Assembly: GCA_963805065.1 (NCBI GenBank) | Contig: CAWDSS010000012.1 | Span: 44,174-108,173, forward strand | Source of the DNA: Candidatus Omnitrophota bacterium | GTDB taxonomy: Bacteria; Omnitrophota; Gorgyraeia; Gygaellales; Profunditerraquicolaceae | Reading direction: 5' to 3' | DNA: 64,000 nucleotides | Shown here: piece by piece, positions 22,951-47,939 of the stretch | Layout of the letters: the number at the start of each line of letters is the position of its first letter | How positions within the stretch are numbered: position 1 is the first letter of the stretch | The notes under the pieces: generated by a model | The model's input: the letters and a program-made list of their open reading frames with translations, nothing else | What the model was told of the DNA's origin: nothing | The model's database searches: none | Made by a program: the position numbers and the translations under genes

Positions 22951-23877
22951 TCAGGCGAGAGCCAATTTGTAGCTTGACTCAATGGTTTTTATCAAATCCA
23001 GTAAAATTGAGTTTACAGGAGCGGGAATGCCTAATTCCTGGGCCTGGCGCACAATTACCCCATTTATAAAATCAATTTCCGTGCGCCTCTTTCTTAATAT
23101 ATCCTGAAGCATGGAAGATACGTTTGCACTTGTGGCCTCGCAAACCGCCTCAACTTTTGCCAGCGGGTCGTCATATATAAGCTTAATTTTCTTCCTCTTG
23201 GCGATTTTTGTTGCCTCTGTAACTGCATCCCGTAATATTTTTCTGGTGCCTTCAAATTCAAGCAGCTTTCCGTTATTCAGCCTGGTTATCCCGGTTAAAG
23301 CGTTTATACCCACATTGATGATTAACTTTGACCAAAGAATCCCTTTTATATCCTTTGATATCCTGGTTTCAAATCCTGCCTTGTTCAATATTTCGCGAAT
23401 GGAGCGCATTGAGGCGGGGATTTTGCCATCGAGGCGTCCGATTACTGTTTCTCCTCTGCCGGCATGCCTGACGTGGCCTGCGCCAAGCCAGGTAGCCCCT
23501 TCATTAGTTACGCCTCCGATTACTTTATCGCTGCCCACAACCTCACTAATAATTTCCACATTACCGATACCGTTTTGCAAAGTCAGTACCTGTGAATTTT
23601 GTGAAACCAGCCCACCTGCCAGCTTTATAGCTTCTTTTGTATCATAAGACTTTACGCAAATAATTATCAAATCAGCAATTCCAACTTGCGCCGGGTTAGC
23701 CGTAACGATAACTTGCGTCTTAATAGCCGATATTCCTTCTACAGTCAATCCTTGTTTGGATATAATTTCAGCGCGTTCCTTATTTTTGTCTAAAAGCCAG
23801 ATTTCTTCGCCAGTCTTTGCCAGCGATGCTGCCAGAAGAATTCCCATTGCACCCGGACCTACTATTACTATTTTCAT
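22951..23877 (-). CDS. panE: 2-dehydropantoate 2-reductase
   Basis: MKIVIVGPGAMG (Rossmann fold) and SMLQDILRKRRTEIDFINGV. I prefer the second ATG (23877), which has a GGAGG RBS, over the track start at 23889. Confidence 0.8.
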   Translation of the reverse strand: MKIVIVGPGAMGILLAASLAKTGEEIWLLDKNKERAEIISKQGLTVEGISAIKTQVIVTANPAQVGIADLIIICVKSYDTKEAIKLAGGLVSQNSQVLTLQNGIGNVEIISEVVGSDKVIGGVTNEGATWLGAGHVRHAGRGETVIGRLDGKIPASMRSIREILNKAGFETRISKDIKGILWSKLIINVGINALTGITRLNNGKLLEFEGTRKILRDAVTEATKIAKRKKIKLIYDDPLAKVEAVCEATSANVSSMLQDILRKRRTEIDFINGVIVRQAQELGIPAPVNSILLDLIKTIESSYKLALA

Positions 23878-23892
23878 CCTAACCTCCATAAT

Positions 23893-23955
23893 AAAAGGGG
23901 ACGTTTCTATTTTTCTTCTAATTAGGGAACGTTAAAAATAGAAACGTCCCCTTTT
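23893..23955. repeat. 64-bp palindromic element (GGGGACGTTTCTATTTTT arms), copy 1; probable bidirectional terminator after recO
   Basis: AAAAGGGGACGTTTCTATTTTT, a 19-nt loop, then AAAAATAGAAACGTCCCCTTTT. Confidence 0.8.
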
Positions 23956-26434: not shown

Positions 26435-27353
26435 TAATCCTTTGTACTAACGCATGCCTTACCACATCAGATCCGCTGAAATAAACGAATTTTATGCCCT
26501 CAATGTCCTTAAGGATGTCCTGCGCCTGAAGTAAGCCAATGGGTTTTCCGTCCGGAAGGTCGCTTTGCGTCAGGTCTCCGGTAATCACCGCCTTTGAATC
26601 AAAGCCCAGGCGGGTTAAAAACATTTTCATCTGCTCTGCTGTGCAATTTTGCGCCTCATCTAAGATGATCAACGCGTCGTTTAATGTCCTTCCTCTCATA
26701 TATGCCAGCGGCACAACTTCAATAATGCCGGTTTCCAGGTATTTTTCAATGCGTTCAGCATCCATCATATCATATAGCGCATCATAAAGAGGCCGAAGGT
26801 AGGGTGAAATTTTTTCTGAAATATCCCCCGGGAGAAACCCCAATGATTCACCGGCTTCTATAGCCGGCCTGGTGAGGATGATCCTACGTACCTCCTGTTT
26901 TTTCAAAGACTCTACAGCGCAGGCCATAGCCAGATACGTTTTTCCTGTCCCCGCAGGCCCGATTCCGAATACGATATCATGCTGTCTTATTGCTTCCACG
27001 TATTCGCGTTGGCCTTTGGTTTTTGGGCCGACGTGCTTACCTGCTGATACTGGAGAAATTGTTTCCTGTGTATTTAAGGGAGGGATAGTATCCTGCCTCT
27101 TAAAATTCTTTAACAGATAATTAAAATCCGCTTCTCCAATGCCTGTTTGGCCTGACCTTATCGCAGCGAGAATGTATTCTATCAGGTTTTTAGCCTTATT
27201 GATATTGGCCGACGTGCCGCTTATTTCCAAATGCTCCCCGCGAAGATTCAGCTTGACCCTGTATTCCTTTTCGATTTTTTTAAGGCTGCCGTCGTGAGGG
27301 CCAAAAAGCGCCTGCGCTTCCTCATGTGTTTCTAATTTTACGCCTTTTTTCAT
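26406..27353 (-). CDS. phoH: PhoH-like ATPase
   Basis: Walker A GPAGTGKTYLA and ILDEAQN. I place the start at MKKGVKLETHEEAQALFG (27353); the track's TTG start at 27422 would translate a repeat element. Confidence 0.85.
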   Translation of the reverse strand: MKKGVKLETHEEAQALFGPHDGSLKKIEKEYRVKLNLRGEHLEISGTSANINKAKNLIEYILAAIRSGQTGIGEADFNYLLKNFKRQDTIPPLNTQETISPVSAGKHVGPKTKGQREYVEAIRQHDIVFGIGPAGTGKTYLAMACAVESLKKQEVRRIILTRPAIEAGESLGFLPGDISEKISPYLRPLYDALYDMMDAERIEKYLETGIIEVVPLAYMRGRTLNDALIILDEAQNCTAEQMKMFLTRLGFDSKAVITGDLTQSDLPDGKPIGLLQAQDILKDIEGIKFVYFSGSDVVRHALVQRIIEAYDKSGR

Positions 27354-27370
27354 TTTGAATGGATATGAAT

Positions 27371-27474
27371 TAGATCCTTGCCACGAATTCGATGACATGC
27401 AATTCTGAACCTTTCGTGTCAAGGATAAGTTCGTGCATACAATTTATGTCACTTACGTTCCATAAATTGTGCAC
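27371..27474 (-). repeat. two-hairpin leader element, copy 1 (upstream of phoH)
   Basis: ATCCTTGCCACG-29 nt-CGTGTCAAGGAT plus the hairpin GTGCATACAATTTATG...CATAAATTGTGCAC. It is homologous to 44684-44790. Confidence 0.7.
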
Positions 27475-28029: not shown

Positions 28030-29423
28030 TTCATTTCCCTCCCTTTCCTGATGGTTAAATTTAATTCTTTTAATTGTTTTTCATCTACTTCTGAAGGCGC
28101 GCCTGTTAGGGGACAAATACCAGCACTCGTCTTGGGAAAGGTAATGACTTCCCTGATGCTGTCTTCCCGGGAAATTATCGCCAAAAGTCTGTCCAAGCCG
28201 AAAGCAACACCACCATGAGGCGGCGCACCGAACTGAAAAGCTTCCAATAAGAAACCGAAACGCCTTCTTGCATCCTCCTTTTCTATGCCGATAATTTTAA
28301 AGATTTTTTCCTGTAATTCCTGGTTATGGATTCTTATGGAACCAGAACCAATCTCCATTCCGTTTAACACCAAATCATAGGAACGCGATTTTACTTTATC
28401 AGGAGACTTTTCCAGGATATCTAAATCCTGCTGCCTGGGAGACGTAAACGGGTGATGCTCGCTTTCCCAGCGCTTTTCTTCTGCGTTGTATTTGAATAAA
28501 GGAAAGTCAGTAACCCAGACAAAAGCGAATTCAGATTTTAATTCCGGGCGTAAATCAGGTTTATCGGAATTATATTTTTTCTGCGCCTCATCGAATGTAA
28601 TTCTGGGAAAGGGAATTTTGATTTCAACACCTCTTAATTCTTTTAACACTAATTGCATCAGTTGTTCAGTTAAGGAAAAAATGTCCTCTTCGTTAACAAA
28701 AGACATTTCTAAATCTAATTGCGTGAATTCAGGCTGGCGGTCAGCGCGCAAATCCTCATCCCTGAAACATTTGGCGATTTGATAGTATTTTTCGATTCCC
28801 GATACCATTAAAATCTGCTTAAATAACTGCGGCGACTGCGGAAGGGCATAAAAATCACCGGGATTAAGCCTTGAAGGCACCAGGTAATCGCGTGCTCCTT
28901 CAGGCGTAGATTTTGTAAGTATAGGGGTCTCACACTCTATAAACCCCAACGGGCCTAAATAATTTCGGATAACTTTATAAAGGTCGCTCCTTAATACTAA
29001 ATTATTAAATACCTTCTTTCTTCTTAAGTCTAGGTAGCGGTACTTAAGCCGCATCTCCTCGCCGATATCCACTTCTTCCAGTATTTCAAAAGGCGGATTT
29101 AAACTAGGGTTTAATATTTCCAATTCTTTCGCGAGTATTTCAATTTCACCGGTTGGCAACTTGGGATTAACAGTGCCTTTAGGCCGGTTGTTAACCGTAC
29201 CCTTGATCTTAATTACAAATTCACTCCTTAAATCCTGTGCCAATTTGTAAGCCTCTCCCGATTCCTTGGGTATAAAAACAACCTGGGTGAGCCCGTATCT
29301 ATCCCTTATATCAATAAATATAAGCTTTCCATGGTCCCTGCGAGTGGCTACCCAACCGCAGAGAGTTACCTCTTTGCCGACATCGTTAGCAGTTAACTGG
29401 CCGCAAGTATGAGTTCGTAACAT
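28026..29423 (-). CDS. aspS: aspartate--tRNA ligase, bacterial-type but lacking the GAD insertion domain
   Basis: 465 aa with MLRTHTCGQL...GWVATRRDHGKLIFIDIRDRYG, motif 2 (FRDEDLRADRQPEFTQLD) and GGVAFGLDR. SDKPDLRPELKSEFAFVWVTDFPLF joins directly where E. coli AspRS carries about 130 aa. Confidence 0.85.
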   Translation of the reverse strand: MLRTHTCGQLTANDVGKEVTLCGWVATRRDHGKLIFIDIRDRYGLTQVVFIPKESGEAYKLAQDLRSEFVIKIKGTVNNRPKGTVNPKLPTGEIEILAKELEILNPSLNPPFEILEEVDIGEEMRLKYRYLDLRRKKVFNNLVLRSDLYKVIRNYLGPLGFIECETPILTKSTPEGARDYLVPSRLNPGDFYALPQSPQLFKQILMVSGIEKYYQIAKCFRDEDLRADRQPEFTQLDLEMSFVNEEDIFSLTEQLMQLVLKELRGVEIKIPFPRITFDEAQKKYNSDKPDLRPELKSEFAFVWVTDFPLFKYNAEEKRWESEHHPFTSPRQQDLDILEKSPDKVKSRSYDLVLNGMEIGSGSIRIHNQELQEKIFKIIGIEKEDARRRFGFLLEAFQFGAPPHGGVAFGLDRLLAIISREDSIREVITFPKTSAGICPLTGAPSEVDEKQLKELNLTIRKGREMK

Positions 29424-29457
29424 ATTAACCTCGATTGAATAAATTCAAAACGTAAAT

Positions 29458-29521
29458 AAAAGGGGACGTTTCTATTTTTAACGTTTCCTAATCAAAAGGA
29501 AAAATAGAAACGTCCCCTTTT
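29458..29521. repeat. 64-bp palindromic element, copy 2 (after hisS); loop in the opposite orientation to copy 1
   Basis: Arms are identical to copy 1. The loop AACGTTTCCTAATCAAAAGG is approximately the reverse complement of the copy-1 loop. Confidence 0.8.
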
Positions 29522-38167: not shown

Positions 38168-41100
38168 TTAATTTTTCAAATAAGCTAATTCTTTGTTCTT
38201 TGCTGCATTATCCTGCTCTTCTCCCACTTTAGGAAAAGTGTTGAATATTACGTTTAAGTTATTTATCGGCTGCATCCTGATAATCTGAAAGGTAAAACCT
38301 TCTAAGTTACTCAGGTCAATTGGAGGCATTTTCACAGGTACTGAATTAGGAGCAGCTGCAACATCAATCGCACCTAAATCAATACCGCCTGGGTTATCGG
38401 CAATCTCAGAAGTCACCGCTGAGCTGGCAGCCATGAAAACATTATTTATAGTTATATTTCCTTTGCTTTCACGACTATCGTGAAGTGATTTGCTATAAAC
38501 TTTATGGCATTCGTAGGATAGTACAACATCCCGGCCTTGTCTACTAAATGATGTTGTAGTATGTAAGCGGCTTTCATCTTGCCATGTTGAATTATCTTGA
38601 TAATAACCAGACTGATATTGTTTTATTGCATCTTGATCTTTGTTTATAACACTCCTTACAAAGTTTTCAAATTGCGTTAGAATGCTCTTTATATTTTCCT
38701 TTATTAATGGAGCATAAATTATATCTCTCAATTCCTTCTGCAGTTGCTTCTTTGCTTGAGCAATTTGTGTAGTAACGGCTTCAGTTATCTCTGAGCTGGC
38801 CATATTATTAAGTAAGCTTGCTTCAATTTCACGCACACTCTGGCTCTGGCTTAGGGTAAATTTAACCTCCATTCCTTCCTTGAAGAAAAATCCTGTTTTC
38901 CAAATATTGTGCACTAATGCACGTAGGTTGGGTTTAGATGAACTATCGGAGAAATCATCGGTATAATGTGCAAGAAGATTCACGCCTCTAACGTTTTGTC
39001 TCCTCAGAGGATCCAGGGTGATCATATATTCTTTTCCGCCGATATCCTTTATTGTGATTGTGTTCAAGATTGCTTTTTTTGTAATGTGGCCCTCAGAGTC
39101 TTCCCCTGCCTCTAATGCATCATATATCAGCTGTGCAAGTTCCTTTACTGCCTTGCTGGATTGTGTTTCTATCGGCGAGCCGGCGGCTGCTAATCTTTCA
39201 GTATTAGATAATGGTGCTGCTTCGAGCAATTTAGTTATGTCTTCCTGGCGTGCCTGATTAAGCATAAGTTGCCTTACTAAGTCCATTTCCTTGGTTGAAA
39301 AACTCCATTGGTTATCATAGCCAACAGGCGTAGTGTAAAGCGGCCCTGCAATCTGCTCAATCATATCGTCAAAAAGAATAGAGCCTGTACTTTGACCAGT
39401 GATGGTATCTTCCCAGCGATATCGCCCATTAACTTTATCCTTTTCGCTAAATATTTTGATGTCCTCGGGGAATTCCTTTGCAATCATGGAAAGATAAAGT
39501 TTTACAGTTTCCTGCGGGACATTCTGAGGCAATAAAAGACTGAGGTCAAACACAGAACCACCCTTAATTATAACGTTACCATCCAAATAAGCAGTAGGTG
39601 TACGCATGGCTGTAAAAAGTGCATTTACCATGAGATGTTGAGCTACTCCTTTTGCCGCTCCGGTTGCCTTAGGGCTTAAATGGCCCTCGGGGTTTTCTTT
39701 ATCTTTACCGGTATACATATGAAAGGTTGGCCCTATTTCTGTAATGATCATAGTTCCAAATCCAGCTGCTAATTCCGATAGCGCTAGAGTAACATAGCTA
39801 TCACCATTAGTAGAACAAGAAGTTGTACTTATATACGATGCTCCTTTGGACTTGGTATAAGGCATTTTCTGTAAATAATCGCCTAGTTCATTAAAAGGAG
39901 CTCCCATAGGCACAAGCAATTTCTTAGGAATCTGGGCTTTTATATAAATGAATTGTTCGGCTCTTCCTTGCGCTAAACGATCTTTTTCTACCTGGGTTAA
40001 TATTTCCTTAAGGCGTGCTAATTCTTCCGGAGCGTCTCCTAATTTATCACTAGAGAAACTTAAATTATTTTTAGCTACAAAATCCCAAAGCGGAGTTCCA
40101 TCAAGCTTGATTTTCTTCTGCTTAAATAACTCGGAAATCTGTTGGTCGCCAATTTCTACTCCACCAGGTGTAGCATCAATAATAATCCCAAAGTAGTATG
40201 GTTTGCCGTCTTTTTCGTAAACAATCATCGGGCGAGGTATATTATCCAAATTTGTGCCTTCCAGTTTAAACGCTTCCACTAAACCCTGGTTAAACTGTCC
40301 TACATCTACATACCAGATAATCCCTACTTTCTTACCATCAAGAAGCACATTAACCGGATAAACGCTGGGAATTTGTGAAGGAGTTTGGAAATCAAGTTGT
40401 GCATTAAGCAATTCATTTCCTGGTTCAAAAGTCAGGCGATTAGCAGCTAAAAGATCGGTAACTTTCACTGATTTCCCATCACTTGTAACCAAACTCACAC
40501 CTGAACTTTTAACCTGCGGATCCTGAAAAATATCTTGCTTGGTTTTATTTACAGCAGTGGCAAATTTTTCTTCTGGAGTATTACCTTCAAGACTTCTAGT
40601 CCTTACTAAGAATCTACCGATAAAATTGGGATCCTTGTTATTATTAATGTTATATCTTAAGGTATAAACAACAGTAATGCTTCCAATCTCACCAGTTCCA
40701 TCAATGGCAATAAGAGGATTCTTCGAAGGAAGATCGGTCTTAGGATTATCATTTTTAAGATGTTTAAAACTAGCAATAAAATTATCCGTGCTTAATATCC
40801 CGGCAAGCTGAAGTATATCATAACACCAAATTCCTCCCTCATTAGCATAGGTAGAATATACTCTGGATAAATTATCTTTCTCAGCCTGTGATAGCGCTAT
40901 GCCTTTGCTTGCTAGATGACGAATTATGGCATCTGCATTTGCTCCATTTAGCTCTATAGCATCGCTGTTTCTCAATAGCTGGTTCAGTTTTGTGGCGTAC
41001 TTACCAATCTGAGCTCTTGCAGGTTCCATAACACGAGCTTCTTTGAAATGTTCCTGCGATAATTTTAGCAAATACCTATAAGTTCTGGCATAAAATCCAG

Positions 41101-44100
41101 TAAGGGCATCTGTAAATTTGCTTCCATCAGGAGCTTTTGATGCTAAAATTGATAAAATATACATAGGCCTAGATATTTGTTGAAGAGTGTTAAGGCTTGC
41201 CTCAAATTTTTCCACATTCTTTCCAAAGCCAGGAGTTTTTGCTTCCTGGTCAGCCTTTGAAATATAACCTCCTAAAAGTTTATCAATTTCAATACCTTCT
41301 GGATTGACAAGAGATTGCGCGTCTAAATTACTAACTGCTTTAGCTAACAAGTCCATACGAGAAAAATCGCCCTTGTTAAAATCTGCCAGAAAAAGCTGGT
41401 AATATTTACGTAGGACATCAAAGGATGCTTTATGGGTTGAAGCATCTATTTCTTCCTTAGGCCAGACAACCGGCTCCATCAATGCCGAAAGGGCATCGGC
41501 CAAATCAGGTAATTGTTCCTTAAGATCACTCTTAATTTTCGCATTAAGAGCATCAATTGCCGCATAATCTCGTTTCACCCACAAAGGAATGAATACCAGT
41601 ATCACGTTGTCTGGAGACTTAATGGCAATCAATGATGCTAAATCTACGCCTGCAGCACCGATTTTGCCAACATCCAACTTATGGGATTTTGTTTCTGCTG
41701 TGGTAACTCCCACGCCCTCTTCTTTTAAATAGCCAGCGAGATATTCCTGAAATGCTCCACCAACTGCTTTAGCGTCTTTAGCAGCAGCTATTTTTGCGCG
41801 TAATTCATCAGGAAGGTTTTCCGGCATAAAAACCATAGGAATATAGGCACCGCCGTAAAATATATCTGACCTGCCTGCAAATGGACCCTCAGCTATTACT
41901 CTAAACTTAGTTCCTAAATCTGAGGTATAAAGATCGAGTGCTGCGGCCCTATTAGCATCGTTTCCATTAATAGAGGTATCTTCATGCCTGGTAGCAGGCG
42001 TAGGTAATAACACTCCTTCGGGAAACGCATTTTTGACTGCTGAGTAAATATTAAAAAGCGACTTCTCGGTGTCCATTTTAAGCACTGCTCTTACAGGAGG
42101 AAGATTAGCAGCTCCTTTGGTTAAAGCAGTTAATAAAGAACCGCCGCCTGTAGAAAAATTTACTTTATCACTGAGTTTCCATGCTGGATTTATGGTTTTC
42201 ATTTCCTCAACAACTATATCTAGTGCATTTTTCATATCTCCACCAGCAAAAAATACTGCCACGCCACGCTCTGCCGCTGCATTAGCTGCTACCACTAAGG
42301 CGATAGTTCCTTTTTTTGATCCCCAATCCTTATCAAAAACTCCTGCTCCGCCATTTAAAATCAAGCCATCGCCTTCTTGTAGGCTGTCTATATGATCAAC
42401 ATCTTCTTTAATAGCTGTGTTACCAATATCTATCTGCTCATCATCCAAAGTTAAATCTTCTAGCCTTACGCTTCCTTCCTTCTCTTTAACAAAGAAATCT
42501 TTGGGGGTAATAAGGTAAACTCCGGACTCTCCTATTTTCTTTATTCCGACAGCTACATCTTTCTCTTCTTTTGCTAAAGGCATCTTAGACTTCCCCATCT
42601 GGAAACCTTTCTCCCTAAGATAGGGATTAACCTGTGCACCTACTAACATAATCGTTCCACCTGATTCAGCTATAGGCTTGGTTAGCTCTCCAAAATTCTT
42701 ATATTTATCAAATTTAGCACCTCCAGCCATAAGAGATAATTTTCCAGTCACTTTTCCTTGAAAATCAAGTACTGCCTGGACATTTTCAGCTAAATTATAA
42801 CCTGCAGCACGATTTTCCTCAGGGAAAAGCCAAGCCATTTCCATAGAAGCTTCTTCGCCGCGATGTGCTTTATCAAATGCCTCGTTAAGATAGACCAACT
42901 TATCAACGGATCTATCTGTTAAACCAATTATTCTTTCTTCAAAAGCCTGCCTCTTTCCAGCAATATCAGATTTTTCTGACCCGCTGGCTTTTTTATCCGC
43001 CTTTAGTTGCTCTTCAGGATAGAGCCGTATATTATCAAATATAAACATATACCTTCTATTGCTCGCTAATTTAGCCTCTCGAATAACTTTCCCTGCTTCC
43101 GATAAATCATAAGGAAGTAAAACAATTCCAATGTCTTTATTGAGGCCGTTTTTATATAGAATCTCCTCGGCTTTAGCTACTGTAGGAGCTAAGTTAAAGT
43201 CTTCAAACCTTTTCTGTATATCGCTCTCATCTGCCGGCCTTCCTAAATGAGTCATAACATACAGGTATTGAAGCCCCAGGTCATCGAATGCGCTTACTAT
43301 GGTTTTAACAGACTGATCAATTCGTTCGGTTTTATTTTGCTCAAGGTCCTTGCGCGCTATATTCCAATCAAGCACAGCCATGCCTGAATCAATGCCGTTT
43401 TTGGCAACTACACCTTTAAGGTCACCTACTGTCCTTACTTCTAGCGGAGAACCAGAACTCTCTTCTCCAGCTTTATCTAATCGTGCGATTTTATCCGTAG
43501 GACTTCCGGCTGATGCTATAGCTACATCCACCCCGGTTAAAATTTTTCCACTTAAATCATCATTTTGAATAGCAGATGAAGATCTCTCTTCAAATTTTGC
43601 AAACTGGCTGATGGGCAATATAGCTCCGCCAGAGAAGTATTGTCTTTTGATGTTTCTGTGTGTGGCTGGGTCAAAGTCTGACTTTACGTAGTTGTATACG
43701 CCTTTTTTGAAGGCTTCCACATAGAGGTTGTAAATCTTATCCTTAGCTGACTTATCAGCTAAGTCTATGCCTTGTATTTTGCCTTTATCTATATAGTATG
43801 AATAGATGGATTCCTTGAATTTCTTCTTAAACCAAGTAGCTAAGATTAGGGATGAGTAAATTTGCCTTAAAGTGGCAAAGTTCTTGCCTGAATTAACTTC
43901 AGCATTGATTTTAGGCAGGATTAGCTCACGCATGACCTTAGATGAGGCTTCATCTACTTTATTAATCAGGTCTTCCTGCATATTTTGCTTTTTGCTCTGG
44001 ATATCTGACAGATTGTTCTTTAGGGCTAGGTAATCCTTATCCAGCATGGTTTTTAAGCTAGCTTCTGCTACTACGGCAAAGTTGCCATTTTCATGAACCA

Positions 44101-44665
44101 CTGCCTTATCAGGCATAATCCAGATTTTGTTAAAGGTATTGACCGGTAGCTTGGTAGTATGGGCTATACGTTGCACTTCCTGGTAGGTTTTCTGCCAATA
44201 GTCTTTACCAGTGTCGCTTTCAGGATAGGTTAAGGAGGCTGAGATTTGTTTTAAGATGTAGTCCTGTGAAAGTAGATCTTTACCTAAGTCAGTTTCAGAG
44301 AGTGCCTGGGTAATCATTTTATCCTTTTCATAAGGAGACATATTTACCCAAAGTTCACTTTCCGGTATGGTTAAGCCAGCTAAGAAGTATTTAATCAGCT
44401 GGGCAGCTTCTTCTTGGCTTACCTTGCCCTGGTCTGCTGTATCAATGATAAACTGCATCTTTAAGGGGTCAGAGGGGTCAAATTTCATACCTTTTAACAG
44501 CGGGAAGGAATAAGAACCGGATAATTGCACAAATTGAGTAGGCGCGGGTAGAGTTATGGAGCCTGCGCGCACTGAAGCAGGTAAGACCATGTTACTGATG
44601 AAAGATATTGCTACAACTAAACAAGCGATTCTTGAAACGAGTTTGTTTTTCCTGAATCTACTCAT
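38168..44665 (-). CDS. giant (2165 aa) signal-anchored multidomain protein containing phosphoglycerate-kinase-like and GAPDH-like modules
   Basis: Signal/anchor: MSRFRKNKLVSRIACLVVAISFISNMVLPASVRA|GS. aa ~35-350: conserved-looking N-domain of unknown function. aa ~410-865, PGK motifs: VMTHLGRP, FDNIRLYPEE, LNEAFDKAHRGEEAS, GGAKFDKY, IDIGN, NGGAGVFD, AGGD, STGGGS. aa ~1317-1805, GAPDH motifs: IAIDGTGEIGS, STTSCSTN (Cys1617), TFHMYT, KATGAAKGV, MRTPT, GYDNQWSFS. C-terminal tail: NPGGIDLGAIDV...FTFQIIRMQPINNL. RBS AAGGAGG. Confidence 0.8.
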   Translation of the reverse strand: MSRFRKNKLVSRIACLVVAISFISNMVLPASVRAGSITLPAPTQFVQLSGSYSFPLLKGMKFDPSDPLKMQFIIDTADQGKVSQEEAAQLIKYFLAGLTIPESELWVNMSPYEKDKMITQALSETDLGKDLLSQDYILKQISASLTYPESDTGKDYWQKTYQEVQRIAHTTKLPVNTFNKIWIMPDKAVVHENGNFAVVAEASLKTMLDKDYLALKNNLSDIQSKKQNMQEDLINKVDEASSKVMRELILPKINAEVNSGKNFATLRQIYSSLILATWFKKKFKESIYSYYIDKGKIQGIDLADKSAKDKIYNLYVEAFKKGVYNYVKSDFDPATHRNIKRQYFSGGAILPISQFAKFEERSSSAIQNDDLSGKILTGVDVAIASAGSPTDKIARLDKAGEESSGSPLEVRTVGDLKGVVAKNGIDSGMAVLDWNIARKDLEQNKTERIDQSVKTIVSAFDDLGLQYLYVMTHLGRPADESDIQKRFEDFNLAPTVAKAEEILYKNGLNKDIGIVLLPYDLSEAGKVIREAKLASNRRYMFIFDNIRLYPEEQLKADKKASGSEKSDIAGKRQAFEERIIGLTDRSVDKLVYLNEAFDKAHRGEEASMEMAWLFPEENRAAGYNLAENVQAVLDFQGKVTGKLSLMAGGAKFDKYKNFGELTKPIAESGGTIMLVGAQVNPYLREKGFQMGKSKMPLAKEEKDVAVGIKKIGESGVYLITPKDFFVKEKEGSVRLEDLTLDDEQIDIGNTAIKEDVDHIDSLQEGDGLILNGGAGVFDKDWGSKKGTIALVVAANAAAERGVAVFFAGGDMKNALDIVVEEMKTINPAWKLSDKVNFSTGGGSLLTALTKGAANLPPVRAVLKMDTEKSLFNIYSAVKNAFPEGVLLPTPATRHEDTSINGNDANRAAALDLYTSDLGTKFRVIAEGPFAGRSDIFYGGAYIPMVFMPENLPDELRAKIAAAKDAKAVGGAFQEYLAGYLKEEGVGVTTAETKSHKLDVGKIGAAGVDLASLIAIKSPDNVILVFIPLWVKRDYAAIDALNAKIKSDLKEQLPDLADALSALMEPVVWPKEEIDASTHKASFDVLRKYYQLFLADFNKGDFSRMDLLAKAVSNLDAQSLVNPEGIEIDKLLGGYISKADQEAKTPGFGKNVEKFEASLNTLQQISRPMYILSILASKAPDGSKFTDALTGFYARTYRYLLKLSQEHFKEARVMEPARAQIGKYATKLNQLLRNSDAIELNGANADAIIRHLASKGIALSQAEKDNLSRVYSTYANEGGIWCYDILQLAGILSTDNFIASFKHLKNDNPKTDLPSKNPLIAIDGTGEIGSITVVYTLRYNINNNKDPNFIGRFLVRTRSLEGNTPEEKFATAVNKTKQDIFQDPQVKSSGVSLVTSDGKSVKVTDLLAANRLTFEPGNELLNAQLDFQTPSQIPSVYPVNVLLDGKKVGIIWYVDVGQFNQGLVEAFKLEGTNLDNIPRPMIVYEKDGKPYYFGIIIDATPGGVEIGDQQISELFKQKKIKLDGTPLWDFVAKNNLSFSSDKLGDAPEELARLKEILTQVEKDRLAQGRAEQFIYIKAQIPKKLLVPMGAPFNELGDYLQKMPYTKSKGASYISTTSCSTNGDSYVTLALSELAAGFGTMIITEIGPTFHMYTGKDKENPEGHLSPKATGAAKGVAQHLMVNALFTAMRTPTAYLDGNVIIKGGSVFDLSLLLPQNVPQETVKLYLSMIAKEFPEDIKIFSEKDKVNGRYRWEDTITGQSTGSILFDDMIEQIAGPLYTTPVGYDNQWSFSTKEMDLVRQLMLNQARQEDITKLLEAAPLSNTERLAAAGSPIETQSSKAVKELAQLIYDALEAGEDSEGHITKKAILNTITIKDIGGKEYMITLDPLRRQNVRGVNLLAHYTDDFSDSSSKPNLRALVHNIWKTGFFFKEGMEVKFTLSQSQSVREIEASLLNNMASSEITEAVTTQIAQAKKQLQKELRDIIYAPLIKENIKSILTQFENFVRSVINKDQDAIKQYQSGYYQDNSTWQDESRLHTTTSFSRQGRDVVLSYECHKVYSKSLHDSRESKGNITINNVFMAASSAVTSEIADNPGGIDLGAIDVAAAPNSVPVKMPPIDLSNLEGFTFQIIRMQPINNLNVIFNTFPKVGEEQDNAAKNKELAYLKN

Positions 44666-44683
44666 TTTAAATCCTCCTTGTTA

Positions 44684-44790
44684 TAGATCCTTGACACGAA
44701 TTCGACAACATTTGTCTATGAACCTTACGTGTCAAGGATTATTTCGCCCAAATAACTTACGTTGCACTTCGTGCTTCCGTAAGTTATGGG
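44684..44790 (-). repeat. two-hairpin leader element, copy 2 (immediately upstream of the giant gene RBS)
   Basis: ATCCTTGACACG-29 nt-CGTGTCAAGGAT (44687-44739) plus a second hairpin, CCCAAATAACTTACG...CGTAAGTTATGGG. The core matches the copy at 27371-27474 at roughly 80 percent by eye. Confidence 0.7.
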
Positions 44791-44794
44791 CTCA

Positions 44795-44860
44795 ATAAAA
44801 AAGCCACGATTGTTAATGAACTTTTTCAAGCTCAATTAAGAACCGTGGCAAATTCTTAAT
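44795..44860 (-). promoter_or_regulatory. terminator/antiterminator-like alternative hairpins inside the giant-gene leader (candidate attenuator or riboswitch expression platform)
   Basis: Minus strand reads GCCACGGTTCTTAAT...ATTAACAATCGTGGC followed by TTTTTTATT, which is terminator-like. The upstream ATTAAGAA (complement of 44853-44860) can instead pair with the TTCTTAAT of the terminator 5' arm. Confidence 0.4.
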
Positions 44861-44922
44861 CTACCTCGATTATGGTAAACTTTTAAAAAGACTTTTGAAA
44901 GCGTTTTCTAAATTCTTTAGTA

Positions 44923-44950
44923 AGTATAACATTTCTCCTTCTATTGTCAA
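44923..44950 (-). promoter_or_regulatory. candidate sigma-70 promoter of the giant gene
   Basis: Minus strand reads TTGACA, a 16-nt spacer, then TATACT. This implies a leader of about 260 nt. Confidence 0.45.
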
Positions 44951-45011
44951 GTTTTTTTTATGTTTTTTGGGAGGTCTATATCTTATTAATATTGGAAGGG
45001 TTAGCTCAAAT

Positions 45012-45042
45012 AAAAAGGGCGAAGATTTGAATTTCTCCGCCC
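45012..45042 (-). terminator. rho-independent terminator of groES-groEL
   Basis: Minus strand reads GGGCGGAGA-loop-TCTTCGCCC followed by TTTTTATTT. Confidence 0.7.
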
Positions 45043-45050
45043 TTCTTAAA

Positions 45051-45078
45051 CGACTATAGACTATCGACTATTGACTAT
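45051..45078. repeat. heptanucleotide tandem array, GACTAT family (4 units)
   Basis: CGACTAT AGACTAT CGACTAT TGACTAT, abutting the groEL stop codon. Confidence 0.85.
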
Positions 45079-46720
45079 TTAATACATCCCTCCGCCCATT
45101 CCTCCCATTCCACCTCCGGGTGCCATAGGCATAGGAGCTTCTTTTTCAGGCTTATCAGTTATTAACGCTTCAGTAGTTAATAACAACGCAGCGATACTGG
45201 AAGCATTTTGCAAAGCTGAACGAGTAACCTTGGTAGGATCAATTACTCCTGCATCAATCATGTCAACATAGGCATCTTGGGTGACATCATAACCGATGTT
45301 GGTTTTTTCCTGCTTAACGCGCTGCACAACCACAGAGCCTTCAAGGCCGGCATTATTTGCCAAATGCCTGATTGGCTCTTCTAATGCACGCTTTACAATA
45401 TCAACACCGATTTTTTCATCGCCTTCCAGCTTCAGCTTATCTAATGAAGGAATTGTGCGTAATAATCCTACACCGCCGCCAGGAATAATTCCTTCCTCAA
45501 CTGCAGCGCGGGTTGCATGAAGGGCATCTTCTACTCTGGCTTTCTTCTCTTTCATTTCTGTTTCAGTAGCAGCGCCGACATTTATCACGGCTACTCCACC
45601 GGCAAGTTTAGCCAGCCTTTCCTGGAGTTTCTCTTTATCATAATCTGAATCAGTATTCTTCAATCTGCTTTCTTAATTTGAGCGATCCGGCCATTGATGG
45701 CGACTGATTTTCCTGCTCCTTCAACTATGGTCGTATTTTCTTTGTCAACTTTAATTCTTTTGGCGCGGCCTAAATCATCAATATCAACATTTTCAAGCTT
45801 TACGCCTAAATCTTCGGTAATTGCCTTGCCACCGGTAAGAATGGCGATATCATCTAGCATAGCCTTACGCCTGTCGCCGTATCCAGGAGCTTTAACTGCG
45901 CAAGCTGTAAATGTGCCGCGGATTTTATTTACCACTAAAGTTGCCAATGCCTCACCCTCAACTTCTTCGGCAATAATCAATAAGCGGCTTTGCCGGTGCG
46001 GGCAATTTTCTCTAATAGCGGTAATACATCTTTTAGAGAAGAAATCTTTTTCTCATAGATGAGTATATAAGGCTCCTCTAAAATCACTTCCATTCTTTCT
46101 GCATCTGTAACAAAATAGGGAGAAAGATATCCTTGGTCAAACTGCATACCTTCTACAACTTCCAGGGTGGTAGCGGTTGATTTAGCTTCTTCAACGGTGA
46201 TTACTCCGTCTTTACCGACTTTATCCATTGCCTCTGCGATTAAATCTCCGATAGCAGTATCGCAGTTGGCAGCAATTGAAGCAACCTGGGCAACTTCTTT
46301 TTTATCTTTGATAGGGGTGGAAAGCTTCTTTAACTCTTCAAAAACTTTTTCCACTGCTTTTTCAATCCCGCGCTTTAATGCCATGGGGTTTGCACCGGCA
46401 GTAACGTTCTTTAAACCTTCGCGATAAATCGCTTCGGCTAAAATTGTAGCTGTAGTTGTACCATCGCCTGCGATATCAGAAGTTTTTTCCGCGACTTCCT
46501 TAACCATCTGAGCGCCCATATTTTCAAAAGGGTCCTCAAGGTCAATTTCCTTTGCCACTGTGACGCCGTCTTTGGTTATTGTGGGTGAGCCGAATTTCTT
46601 ATCAATCACGACATTGCGGCCTTTGGGGCCTAATGTCACCTTGACTGCCGCAGCTAATTGCTCGACACCGCTTAAAATCTTTCTGCGGCCTTCATCTTTG
46701 AATAATAATTGCTTTGCCAT
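45079..46720 (-). pseudogene. groL: chaperonin GroEL, interrupted by two single-base frameshifts as sequenced
   Basis: Three collinear fragments: [19 protein letters not shown]...; [21 protein letters not shown]...; and ...[23 protein letters not shown]...[11 protein letters not shown]. The breaks are at about 45982 (AA, expected AAA) and about 45664. Confidence 0.9.
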
Positions 46721-47046: not shown

Positions 47047-47075
47047 TCCTACACCTCCCTTAAATTGTTTATTGT

Positions 47076-47102
47076 TTAGCACTCTGTTTTCCAGAGTGCT
47101 AA
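47076..47102 (-). promoter_or_regulatory. CIRCE operator (HrcA binding site)
   Basis: A perfect TTAGCACTC-N9-GAGTGCTAA lying between the -10 box and the groES RBS. Confidence 0.9.
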
Positions 47103-47129
47103 TTATAAAATAAAAAAAATCTTTGTCAA
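47102..47129 (-). promoter_or_regulatory. groESL sigma-70 promoter
   Basis: Minus strand reads TTGACA, a 16-nt spacer, then TATAAT, abutting CIRCE. Confidence 0.65.
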
Positions 47130-47142
47130 GAAGTTTTTCATA

Positions 47143-47200
47143 TTTTGTTTTCATTAATGAAAGCAAAATATGATGCCGTGGCAATGTGCCACGGCATCAT
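47143..47200 (-). promoter_or_regulatory. paired palindromes upstream of the groESL promoter (module shared with hup)
   Basis: TTTTGTTTTCATTAATGAAAGCAAAA and ATGATGCCGTGGCAATGTGCCACGGCATCAT. Compare 31139-31197. Confidence 0.4.
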
Positions 47201-47262: not shown

Positions 47263-47757
47263 TTATTGGCCTATTAGGTTTAGCCTTTGCGGAGTATTTA
47301 CAGAGTTTGCGGAATAGCCAACCGTGTTTGCCTTTTCAACGCTGAGCTTTGGAGCTTTCAAAGTTCCGGTACCTGAAACTGATGTAGAACCCTGCTTGAC
47401 ACTCGTAGCTACACTCCTTATCTTTACGGCATACGTATTGCCTGTCGTAGAAGCGCCATATGCTGATTTTTTCGACGAGGTTGTTCCAACCTGATAATTC
47501 ATACTGGCAACTTCATTCCTGCTTGCGCTTATGTTTCCGTTATTTTCCAGGTTTTGAGTGCTTTTCTGCTCTGCCTGAACCTTAAATGCAGATATATTCT
47601 TTACACTTCCGGTTTGAACTTGCTTAACATCATCAGACTTAATCTTATCAGGCTTAATCTTATCAATTTTAATTTTCTGGATGTCATCTGCATAAGCATT
47701 TAGAGCAAAACCTGTTACAAAACACATTGCTAAAACTATCATTAATATTTTTTTCAA
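47263..47757 (-). CDS. secreted low-complexity protein, function unknown
   Basis: 164 aa with a signal peptide (MKKILMIVLAMCFVTGFALNAYA), a KIKIDKIKPDKIKSD repeat, and a Ser/Thr-rich composition. Confidence 0.45.
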   Translation of the reverse strand: MKKILMIVLAMCFVTGFALNAYADDIQKIKIDKIKPDKIKSDDVKQVQTGSVKNISAFKVQAEQKSTQNLENNGNISASRNEVASMNYQVGTTSSKKSAYGASTTGNTYAVKIRSVATSVKQGSTSVSGTGTLKAPKLSVEKANTVGYSANSVNTPQRLNLIGQ

Positions 47758-47939
47758 CTTCCACCTCCCTTTTCACTGACCCAGTTAATAATCTATCGAC
47801 ATTTAAACTTTTCTAAACTCATTAAAAAGTACCTAAATAAAAACAGGCAACCCAAAAAGGGCACTTACCTGTATAAACCGTGGCTTTCTGTATGCGTTTA
47901 AAGTATAACACACAGGTGTTTGTTGTCAACCCGAATTTT

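Follow-up and report, generated by a model that had tools for sequence, protein, structure and literature searches.

A putative new terminator/antiterminator leader, with no aptamer found, in front of a giant gene of Omnitrophota

We report that the interval directly upstream of a giant gene in a 64,000-nt stretch of Omnitrophota DNA (the whole stretch analysed, hereafter the window) is probably a 5' leader that acts as a factor-dependent transcription attenuator, in which a small conserved hairpin, P1, competes with an intrinsic terminator. Judging from sequence and folding, this leader is most likely a new on/off switch for giant genes, and its assignment to an ordinary kind of cis-regulatory element, placed in an unusual setting, is well supported. 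Giant genes are a hallmark of the Omnitrophota, and neither what they do nor how they are controlled is known (PMC10066038; bioRxiv 10.1101/2023.11.21.568195; bioRxiv 10.64898/2026.06.07.730766); term searches of PMC10066038 and 10.64898/2026.06.07.730766 show that neither paper mentions riboswitches or leader elements of another kind.

The giant gene of the window is encoded on the minus strand and specifies a protein of 2,165 aa, the N-terminus of which (MSRFRKNK) aligns with those of other family members. The giant proteins are made of glycolytic-enzyme-like domains, and the transcription units of the family are unusually long single genes of 6.5-11 kb. Neither the window's own giant protein nor P0005, its closest paralogue, was located on a contig by exact look-up, a cluster look-up returned no names, and the AlphaFold model of the N-terminal domain reached a pLDDT of 47, too poor for a fold search. 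Scanning genome contigs with an alignment of the N-terminal domain gave three loci only, and the peptide patterns were too specific, while a second homologue search with this domain returned short partial proteins only, which did not help with leaders. The related DNA considered here (~256 kb) is made up of the 64-kb window together with related loci amounting to about 190 kb. The assembly carries frameshifts in groEL, so that single-base errors are possible in the leader. The features of the interval are listed in Table 1; the elements named in a preliminary description of this DNA all lie on the minus strand, at or within a few bases of where they had been placed.

Table 1. Features of the giant-gene leader and a related repeat, in window coordinates.
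Feature	Position	Strand	Basis or remark
A-rich tract ccaaaaaacataaaaaaaac, putatively UP-element-like	44951..44970	-	directly 5' of the -35
Sigma-70-type promoter, TTGACA-16-TATACT (TTGACA 44950-44945, TATACT 44928-44923)	44923..44950	-	scores 11/12
12-bp palindrome GAAAACGCTTTC, candidate operator	44897..44908	.	starts 15 nt after the -10
P1, putative antiterminator hairpin, AUUAAGAA (44860-44853) / UUCUUAAU (44842-44835), 8 bp	44835..44860	-	folding, covariation
Intrinsic terminator, hairpin 44849-44803 and U-tract UUUUUUAUU 44802-44794	44794..44849	-	folding, terminator scan
H2 hairpin	44746..44791	-	directly after the U-tract; -23.9 kcal/mol, z -6.2
H3 hairpin, 12-bp perfect arms, 29-nt interior	44687..44739	-	ends 21 nt before the ATG; -23.4 kcal/mol, z -6.5
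Shine-Dalgarno AAGGAGG (44679-44673) and ATG (44665-44663)	44663..44679	-	sequence
H3, second copy	27371..27427	-	18 nt 5' of the ATG at 27353 that starts a PhoH-like gene

The promoter match, described earlier as the best of sigma-70 type and about 260 nt from the start codon, is indeed the best site in 43500-46000, with a TG one base 5' of the -10 hexamer, which ends 258 nt from the ATG; the number of promoter-like matches in the region (5) is close to that in shuffled sequence (5.5). A promoter of the form TTGACA/TTGAAA-16/17-TAnAnT is found 5' of the terminator in all eight leaders with enough upstream sequence (seven of eight by a stricter rule, the leader of L004, with TATATA, being recognised only by a looser pattern), and A-runs like that of the window precede the promoter in L004, L005, L129 and L130. 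Between terminator and ATG, a promoter-like site was found in none of ten leaders, the distance from terminator to ATG ranging from 37 to 136 nt and measuring 37-48 nt in L131, L004 and L133.

The 261-nt leader as a whole folds at -88.7 kcal/mol compared with -49.1 +/- 4.1 kcal/mol for shuffled sequences (z -9.6), none of 200 shuffles being as good. The imperfect 15-bp hairpin with U-tract recognised earlier has arms of 15 nt (44849-44835 and 44817-44803) that are 87% complementary, and it extends to a 20-bp hairpin of 47 nt with -23.4 kcal/mol (z -7.6), the 5' arm of which opens with GCCACGG and the 3' arm of which closes with CGUGGC. A stable hairpin followed by UUUUUUAUU identifies it as an intrinsic terminator. 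A simple terminator scan listed neither this hairpin nor that of groEL, which we attribute to its stem and loop rules, and a second scan found both. The stem base and the U-tract recur in L002, L004, L005 and L131, where the inner stems differ in sequence yet still pair. Terminator stems of GCCACGG/CCGUGGC are widespread among unrelated bacteria (at least 120 metagenomic matches), and the invariance of GCCACGG therefore speaks less strongly for specific recognition than it might seem to. Within the window, GCCACGG is also present at two other promoter-proximal spots (47170-47200 and 47884), and a second unit of promoter followed by terminator lies 3 kb away at 47929-47835.

Conservation and covariation in related genomes, the absence of which the preliminary description would have counted against the switch, are found in the leaders of three other full-length family members from other Omnitrophota assemblies, i.e., the syntenic orthologue of the giant gene (L004) and two paralogues (L002 and L005). 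All three show the same module, in the order promoter, P1 with GCCACGG in its loop, terminator based on GCCACGG/CGUGGC and UUUUUUAUU, and in all three P1 is kept with compensatory changes; L131, a truncated orthologue, shows the 3' half of the module. Outside this conserved core the leaders are unalignable, and GCCACGG and CCGTGGC lie 10 to 51 nt apart, depending on the leader. The core of this leader class (class A) consists of one hairpin with a loop of 3-12 nt, preceded by 18 to ~130 nt of unconserved sequence. A second, larger class (B), built on the same logic, is present in five paralogues; here the ACCGG at the opening of the terminator has a possible pairing partner in a 5' CCGGU. An internal hairpin of class B covaries in five of seven pairs (0/500 shuffles), the class-B domain includes a conserved 12-nt loop, and GCCACG stands free in three of the five class-B leaders.

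The alternative pairing previously suggested as an antiterminator is real: P1 of the window folds at -5.7 kcal/mol (z -3.1). Classical pairing with the 5' arm of the terminator is absent; P1 instead holds that arm, with the invariant GCCACGG (44849-44843), in its loop. Across the four full class-A leaders (window, L002, L004 and L005), the P1 helices measure 6-11 bp, with no broken internal pair. MAFFT did not produce an in-register alignment of the leaders, and P1 was therefore counted on arms and core after removal of 0-3-nt spacers. In register, 91.7% of the cells are paired and both sides have changed in five of nine pairs, a covariation that comes largely from L002 (the P1 sequence is nearly identical in three of the four leaders). 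Of 500 shuffles, 2-5 attained what was observed for four of the measures (pairing, number of pairs with both sides changed, additional pair types and covariation score) and 13 attained the count of cells changed on both sides, while controls in which P1 was slid out of register were 39-59% paired. As a further control we used generic terminators from a metagenome scan for GCCACGG N{8,38} GTGGCTTTTTTATT (at least 120 matches); a P1-like helix of at least 6 bp occurs in 4 of the 120 unrelated terminators listed with the frame GCCACGG...GTGGCTTTTTTATT, and none of these 120 listed matches adjoins the giant-gene family. Two pattern scans of viral contigs gave one chance match in coding DNA and at least 120 random matches. 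In the leader of L004, the terminator stem consists of GCCACGG/CCGUGGC only, the 3' arm of P1 forms the loop of the terminator, and P1 is still present, which argues that P1 is selected for its own sake.

From these elements and their energies we infer termination, read-through, their regulation and the nature of the effector as follows. The strong sigma-70-type promoter would start the transcript, and about 60 nt into it the small AU-rich P1 would fold with GCCACGG in its loop; in three of the four leaders, that of the window included, P1 has the lowest energy of all folds of the nascent RNA, at the stage before the 3' arm of the terminator has been transcribed. As the polymerase advances, the stabler hairpin would form, using GCCACGG as its 5' arm and capturing the 3' arm of P1, and together with UUUUUUAUU it would terminate transcription, giving a default transcript end at about 44795. 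Across the leaders, P1 amounts to -5.7 to -10.4 kcal/mol against -15.6 to -34.1 kcal/mol for the terminators, and once the terminator is complete the P1 state is worse by 7-12 kcal/mol, which makes termination the predicted default. The giant gene would then be expressed only if P1 is held closed, or GCCACGG otherwise sequestered, until the polymerase has passed the U-tract. GCCACGG is invariant beyond the needs of pairing and P1 is too weak alone, which together point to a sequence-specific factor acting in trans, most likely an RNA-binding antiterminator protein working in the manner of the RAT/BglG type. In leaders with a long linker, the helices of P1 and of the terminator may sterically coexist as a pseudoknot. 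A leader peptide was also considered and rejected: no short ORF is common to the four class-A leaders, and a TTG ORF with an SD-like sequence occurs in the window only.

The same layout would be produced if the unit from promoter to terminator were an sRNA gene, or the constitutive source of a 5'-UTR-derived sRNA, of ~120 nt, with P1 as no more than its structural hairpin and the giant gene expressed by constant leaky read-through with no switching at all. The unit does combine a strong promoter with a short transcript and a strong terminator, the energy difference of 7-12 kcal/mol is in favour of the terminator state, and the second promoter-then-terminator unit of the window suggests that such a layout may be usual in this genome. 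We nevertheless consider the sRNA unlikely, as the unit always lies directly 5' of one gene family and on the same strand, no other promoter-like site is available for these genes even with the ATG as near as 37-48 nt, the helix with compensatory changes (P1) is exactly the competitor of the terminator, and the region 5' of P1, where the seed of an sRNA would be expected, is unconserved.

A metabolite or ion riboswitch would replace the trans-acting protein of the attenuator by a ligand, bound in class A by P1 and the GCCACGG loop, perhaps in a pseudoknot with CGUGGC as in very small aptamers of the preQ1-I type, and in class B by the CCGGU/ACCGG domain. This fits the logic of an expression platform, the invariant loop nucleotides and the multi-element domain of class B, with a closing helix that shares bases with the terminator and with its conserved 12-nt loop; moreover, given the glycolytic-enzyme-like domains, a metabolite signal would make sense. 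Against it, the core of class A amounts to a single simple hairpin, with 5' sequence that is variable and unconserved, the linker of 2 nt in L004 makes the pseudoknot sterically implausible, and no Rfam family reached its gathering score, with nothing relevant at E values up to 10, so that we regard a riboswitch as quite improbable. In detail, searching the window and eight related loci with Rfam at gathering and permissive thresholds gave only tRNAs at the gathering score, the matches below it being at chance level, and a T-box had no match at E up to 10 in 44400-45200 or in the relatives. The preliminary description, which recognised no known aptamer, agrees with this Rfam result; of the attenuator or riboswitch platform that it proposed, the terminator and antiterminator stand, being conserved and covarying, whereas for a riboswitch aptamer the class-A core looks too small and hairpin-like and Rfam gives no match.

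Additionally, the interval contains an element missing from the earlier inventory, which was otherwise borne out, namely the conserved palindrome just 3' of the promoter. Its motif, GAAArCGyTTTC, has four sites in 256 kb of Omnitrophota DNA, all four in leaders of the giant-gene family and in either orientation, compared with a background of three sites in 1.71 Mb; the palindrome begins 15, 16 and 21 nt past the -10 hexamer in the window, L129 and L005, respectively. By its sequence and position the palindrome looks like the operator of a DNA-binding regulator, and it would probably provide repressor control at initiation, added to the RNA switch. A tblastn search with CcpA, PurR and Cra as queries gave no gene of the LacI family in the 256 kb of related DNA; the regulator may be encoded elsewhere. 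One could go further and take both GCCACGG/CCGTGGC and GAAAACGCTTTC for DNA-level sites bound by transcription factors, with the RNA hairpins as by-products, and a palindrome occurring in either orientation does suit a DNA site, as do the two further promoter-proximal occurrences of GCCACGG. However, the spacing of 10-51 nt between GCCACGG and CCGTGGC is incompatible with a dimeric DNA site, the U-tract is always on one strand only, and the inner stems and P1 covary with RNA pairing kept, which leaves this explanation very improbable; the palindrome as a DNA site may well add to the RNA switch rather than replace it.

Scarcely credible, finally, is that the hairpin and U-tract serve only as a back-up terminator or insulator of the groESL operon and that the giant gene is not transcribed from TTGACA-16-TATACT: the hairpin does lie 280 nt past the groEL stop codon and promoter-like matches are as frequent in shuffles, but groEL already has its own hairpin and U-run at 45048-45011, upstream of the giant-gene promoter, the module of promoter and terminator follows unrelated genes in other genomes (a family member in L004, a 75-aa ORF in L005 and dnaE in L129), and no leader has a promoter-like site downstream of the terminator, so that the terminator is not a spare one of groEL, an option raised in the preliminary description.

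Two further hairpins between terminator and start codon had been described as well; both are present, but they are no part of the conserved unit, outside of which we place them on sequence comparison. Nothing resembling H2 in sequence is present in L002, L004 or L005. H3 can pair weakly, through its 5' arm, with the ribosome-binding site of the giant gene, and it is a repeat: a second copy precedes a gene identified as PhoH (4.2e-96), and the copies have their stems and some of the loop in common, with 5 matches where 0.38 would be expected. The 64-kb window contains two copies of H3 and the related loci none, and a hairpin abutting the ribosome-binding site is also present in L004 and L005, with sequences unrelated to H3. 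Two other identities for H3 were rejected, namely a tRNA-like element (loop GGTTCA...TCGAAT), as ARAGORN finds no tRNA there, and a promoter, as by eye neither copy has a -10-like hexamer 16-18 nt after the TTGACA that H3 contains.

For the attenuator as preferred here, the wider meaning would be a lineage-specific family of at least two structural classes that share GCCACG and a terminator, and through which one dedicated RNA-binding antiterminator, or a new small-ligand riboswitch, would co-activate the many paralogous giant secreted proteins, with the shared operator as a second layer; we put this forward tentatively, as a possible but doubtful extension. If true, an uncultivated phylum would have a new RNA switch that spans a whole regulon and is linked to the most enigmatic genes of that phylum. 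A leader switch common to orthologues and paralogues would offer a handle on the timing of giant-gene expression, the candidate regulon could be traced by a covariance model, and the P1/GCCACGG hairpin and the palindrome could serve as bait for regulators. A metabolite as effector would imply a new riboswitch class, a protein a new antiterminator family.

The two near-identical intergenic hairpins of 55 nt with 12-nt terminal inverted repeats, both just 5' of a gene within one 64-kb window, are reminiscent of small palindromic repeats such as REP elements or Correia-like MITEs; unlike those, H3 is known in two copies, which have the same orientation and distance to the start codon and no evident target-site duplication. 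The palindrome resembles operators of the LacI/GalR family (CcpA cre, Cra boxes), with which it has in common a short, perfect or near-perfect form, a central CG, GAAA/TTTC half-sites and a position just 3' of a promoter, here of genes with glycolytic-enzyme domains; it spans 12 conserved positions compared with 14-16 in those operators, and its binding is a prediction. As in riboswitch expression platforms, including preQ1-I, mutually exclusive helices precede a U-tract, a conserved loop can pair with a 3' strand, and the leader lies between a promoter and a single gene; unlike riboswitches, class A has no recognisable conserved ligand-binding domain and no Rfam match.

The closest parallel to the proposed mechanism are the RAT leaders of BglG, SacY and LicT, where a small early hairpin likewise overlaps a far stabler terminator, termination is the default, and the RAT hairpin has to be stabilised by a sequence-specific RNA-binding protein before it can block termination, as we propose for P1. 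The leader differs from RAT in that P1 encloses the 5' arm of the terminator in its loop rather than pairing with it, and in having no match to the consensus: the Rfam bglG-cis-reg model has no match in the window, and its match elsewhere, only on the class-B leader L133, reaches 16.4 bits, the gathering score being 80. No gene emerged as a candidate antiterminator, and none of PRD type was seen in an unsystematic look through the 256 kb. Antitermination of very long transcription units is exemplified by the EAR RNA of the eps operon, the LoaP leader hairpins and RfaH/ops, systems that modify the polymerase to ignore downstream terminators. Unlike there, only one leader terminator is evident here, and no NusG paralogue was identified; like there, a leader element, with a terminator in the leader, stands before an unusually long unit.

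The minus-strand 5' leader (44950-44665) of the giant gene downstream of groEL is best read as a factor-dependent transcription attenuator, a reading we consider probable. From the anatomy, energies, conservation, covariation and lack of any other promoter-like site observed, we infer that transcription terminates here, that this is regulated and what kind of factor would act. The preliminary description had outlined a best sigma-70 match about 260 nt before the start codon, a hairpin with a following U-run, an upstream segment able to pair with the terminator's 5' arm and two further hairpins ahead of the RBS (H2 and H3), all of which were recovered. The promoter is the top-scoring match of the region and is separated from the groEL hairpin and U-run by an A-rich tract on the minus strand, while the 3' arm of P1, the small competing hairpin, overlaps the 5' side of the terminator hairpin. 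Overall, the predicted folding energy of the 261-nt leader is -88.7 kcal/mol, compared with -49.1 +/- 4.1 kcal/mol for shuffles (z -9.6).

Coordinates and sequence elements of the leader, its relatives and neighbouring features (window positions unless a related locus, L-number, is named)
Feature	Position	Strand	Details
groEL end	45079	-	window sequence
groEL own hairpin and U-run	45048-45011	-	sequence, inverted-repeat and terminator scans
Promoter	44950-44923	-	TTGACA-16-TATACT, 11/12; TG one base upstream of -10
Palindrome	44897-44908		GAAAACGCTTTC; starts 15 nt after -10
P1	44860-44853 x 44842-44835	-	AUUAAGAA x UUCUUAAU; -5.7 kcal/mol, z -3.1
P1, L004			UAAGAA/UUCUUA
P1, L005			UCUUAAGAA/UUCUUAAGA
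P1, L002			AAAGAAGUA/UACUUCUUU
Terminator hairpin	44849-44803	-	-23.4 kcal/mol, z -7.6
U-tract	44802-44794	-	UUUUUUAUU; abuts terminator hairpin
H2	44791-44746	-	inverted repeats and folding
H3	44739-44687	-	12-bp perfect arms
ATG of 2,165-codon ORF	44665	-	258 nt beyond promoter; AAGGAGG ahead
groES promoter and CIRCE	47064-47135	-	TTGACA-16-TATAAT, perfect; CIRCE directly after
Perfect palindrome	47170-47200		ATGATGCCGTGGCA-cat-TGCCACGGCATCAT; 13-nt arms ATGATGCCGTGGC / GCCACGGCATCAT
Second promoter-then-terminator leader	47835-47929	-	TTGACA-16-TATACT; hairpin and UUUUUAUUU
Class-B leaders	L129 9790-9945; L130 6745-6901; L132 325-491; L133 231-368; L136 1-91

Window-type leaders (class A) were compared in four full examples, namely the window, a syntenic orthologue with 76% identity in the N-terminal domain (L004) and two paralogues with different cargo domains (L005 and L002), plus the 3' half of the core from an orthologue on a truncated contig (L131). 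They are unalignable outside a core of P1 5' arm, 2-3 nt, GCCACGG, 0-2 nt and P1 3' arm, followed by a variable 2-40-nt insert, (C)GUGGC and UUUUUUAUU, and each full leader has a TTGACA/TTGAAA-16/17-TAnAnT promoter 66-182 nt upstream of the U-tract. P1 spans 6-11 bp with no internal mismatches in all four. After removal of short spacers to restore register, 91.7% of P1 cells were paired and 5 of 9 pairs had changed on both sides, in a small sample (n = 4) in which L002 supplies most changes. Pairing, both-side pair changes, further pair types and covariation score were each matched by 2-5 of 500 shuffles, the cells changed on both sides by 13 of 500, and pairing fell to 39-59% when the partner was slid out of register. 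Moreover, the L004 terminator comprises GCCACGG-uucuuaaa-CCGUGGC only, with the P1 3' arm as its loop, and still keeps P1, so P1 is not simply a by-product of terminator stem length. A control set of 120 listed metagenomic terminators, unrelated but sharing the GCCACGG...GTGGCTTTTTTATT frame, contained four with a flanking helix of at least 6 bp and none that adjoined a giant-gene family member.

Class-A terminators range from -15.6 to -34.1 kcal/mol, compared with -5.7 to -10.4 kcal/mol for P1. In nascent RNA ending before the terminator 3' arm, P1 lies within the minimum-energy fold in three of four leaders; enforcing it with the terminator complete costs 7-12 kcal/mol. Because the terminator outweighs P1 by this amount, termination is the default outcome predicted at class-A leaders, so that polymerase would read through only if something stabilised P1 or masked GCCACGG. 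Since none of 10 leaders has a promoter-like site between terminator and ATG, a gap as short as 37 nt (L131), 46 nt (L004) or 48 nt (L133), the giant genes must, to judge from sequence, be transcribed through the terminator. Ribosome-mediated attenuation was rejected, as no short ORF is common to the four class-A leaders. That these terminators yield a constitutive sRNA or are leaky, with no switching in either case, is unlikely. In a factor-dependent attenuator, P1 would form first in the transcript with GCCACGG held in its loop, and without a factor stabilising this state the terminator would fold and transcription would halt near 44795.

The second leader type, class B, was found in five paralogues (L129, L130 at 7002, L132, L133/L135 and L136) and runs from the promoter through CCGGU, a hairpin whose loop UUAUGGAGGUAG is conserved, and a linker to the terminator (ACCGGAUUGAC...GUCrrUCCGG plus U-tract). 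Its hairpin stem shows covariation (97% pairing, both sides changed in 5 of 7 pairs, 0 of 500 shuffles), and pairing is possible between the 5' CCGGU and the ACCGG that opens the terminator, an architecture that appears riboswitch-like and would follow the same logic as class A. In three of the five, GCCACG lies directly 3' of the hairpin, in the linker, with a chance expectation of about 0.02 per leader by our own estimate. GCCACG(G) looks like a candidate recognition element in its own right, and mainly because it recurs as such we favour a sequence-specific trans factor; a small-ligand riboswitch is more doubtful still than a terminator without switching. Across 256 kb of Omnitrophota DNA, intergenic class-A and class-B cores occur solely ahead of family genes; one further match, to a class-B 10-mer, is on the opposite strand at L005 5243 and looks like chance. 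Cores are absent where a family member directly follows another family gene, and the L001 leader has neither.

The palindrome behind the promoter is best read as a candidate DNA operator, which would add a control layer at initiation. Its form GAAArCGyTTTC has four sites in the 256 kb, all in family leaders and in either orientation, against a background of 3 sites per 1.71 Mb. Its start lies 15 nt past the -10 in the window, 16 nt in L129 and 21 nt in L005; in L002 the site is 3' of the terminator. The central CG and GAAA/TTTC half-sites presumably resemble LacI/GalR-type boxes, which is a lead only; tblastn found no LacI-family gene in the 256 kb. That the conserved leader elements as a whole act at the DNA level only is improbable. 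Least credible is a back-up groEL terminator, as groEL has its own hairpin and U-run and the module follows unrelated genes in other loci.

H2 has no counterpart in the other leaders. A near-identical copy of H3, agreeing in stems and portions of the loop, lies at 27371-27427 (-), 18 nt ahead of a PhoH-like gene's ATG, and we take H3 to be a repeated element, not a component of a gene-specific sensor. Another 12-bp hairpin (27470-27433) precedes this copy, so that hairpins stand in tandem there as they do ahead of the giant gene. As RBS-abutting hairpins of sequence unrelated to H3 recur in L004 and L005, such hairpins may have a generic role, e.g., in mRNA 5' protection or as a processing site. 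Weak pairing of the RBS with the H3 5' arm can also be drawn, but the perfect 12-bp stem should outcompete it.

Elsewhere in the window, groEL (45079-46720, -) occupies three reading frames, all recognisable as GroEL, with single-base frameshifts near 45975 (GCTTATTG) and 45665. Assembly indels or a pseudogene are the likely cause, so single-base errors are possible elsewhere in the window. The groES CIRCE is canonical (TTAGCACTC-N9-GAGTGCTAA, the HrcA operator). The perfect palindrome flanked by the terminator of the upstream gene and the groES promoter includes the GCCACGG heptamer, as does the giant-gene leader. The second promoter-then-terminator leader, which precedes a lipoprotein-like ORF (TTG at 47757), has GCCACGG 17 nt past the -10 and no P1-like helix. 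Near-identical long hairpin terminators at ~29395-29470 and ~23830-23905 (-; GGGGACGTTTCTATTTTT ... AAAAATAGAAACGTCCCC plus U-run) represent what we regard as another repeated intergenic element.

The giant gene has more than 2,000 relatives, every named one from Candidatus Omnitrophota, which share an N-terminal domain of ~345 aa (AlphaFold pLDDT 47) with a variable series of enzyme-like domains strung behind it. The window protein (38168-44665, -) matches phosphoglycerate kinase (Pfam, 7.9e-32) and, weakly, a GAPDH C-domain (E 0.006); relatives carry enolase, TIM, PFK, aldolase, PPDK, phosphoglucomutase and iPGM domains, with (A/S)(G/S)SP(I/L) linkers between them. By eye, the protein has an N-terminal hydrophobic segment. 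With multi-enzyme-domain relatives it shares a C-terminal motif, GGIDL...F.I..., that ends in LAYLKN. The neighbouring IMPDH-like gene, guaA and dnaE are found again in L004 and L129. Small PilZ-domain genes beside and between family members (L130 3857-4231 and 14285-14635) hint that c-di-GMP signalling may be tied to giant-gene loci.

No Rfam family matched class A or class B in the window and related loci, in keeping with the earlier failure to recognise an aptamer, and sequence-based membership failed for all curated families tested. A term search of two papers on Omnitrophota giant genes (PMC10066038; bioRxiv 10.64898/2026.06.07.730766) returned no riboswitch or leader element. Combining a known working logic with no curated family match, the leader is, on present sequence comparison, a new, unnamed motif of a known leader type, which would work like RAT/BglG-type antitermination or like the expression platform of a riboswitch.
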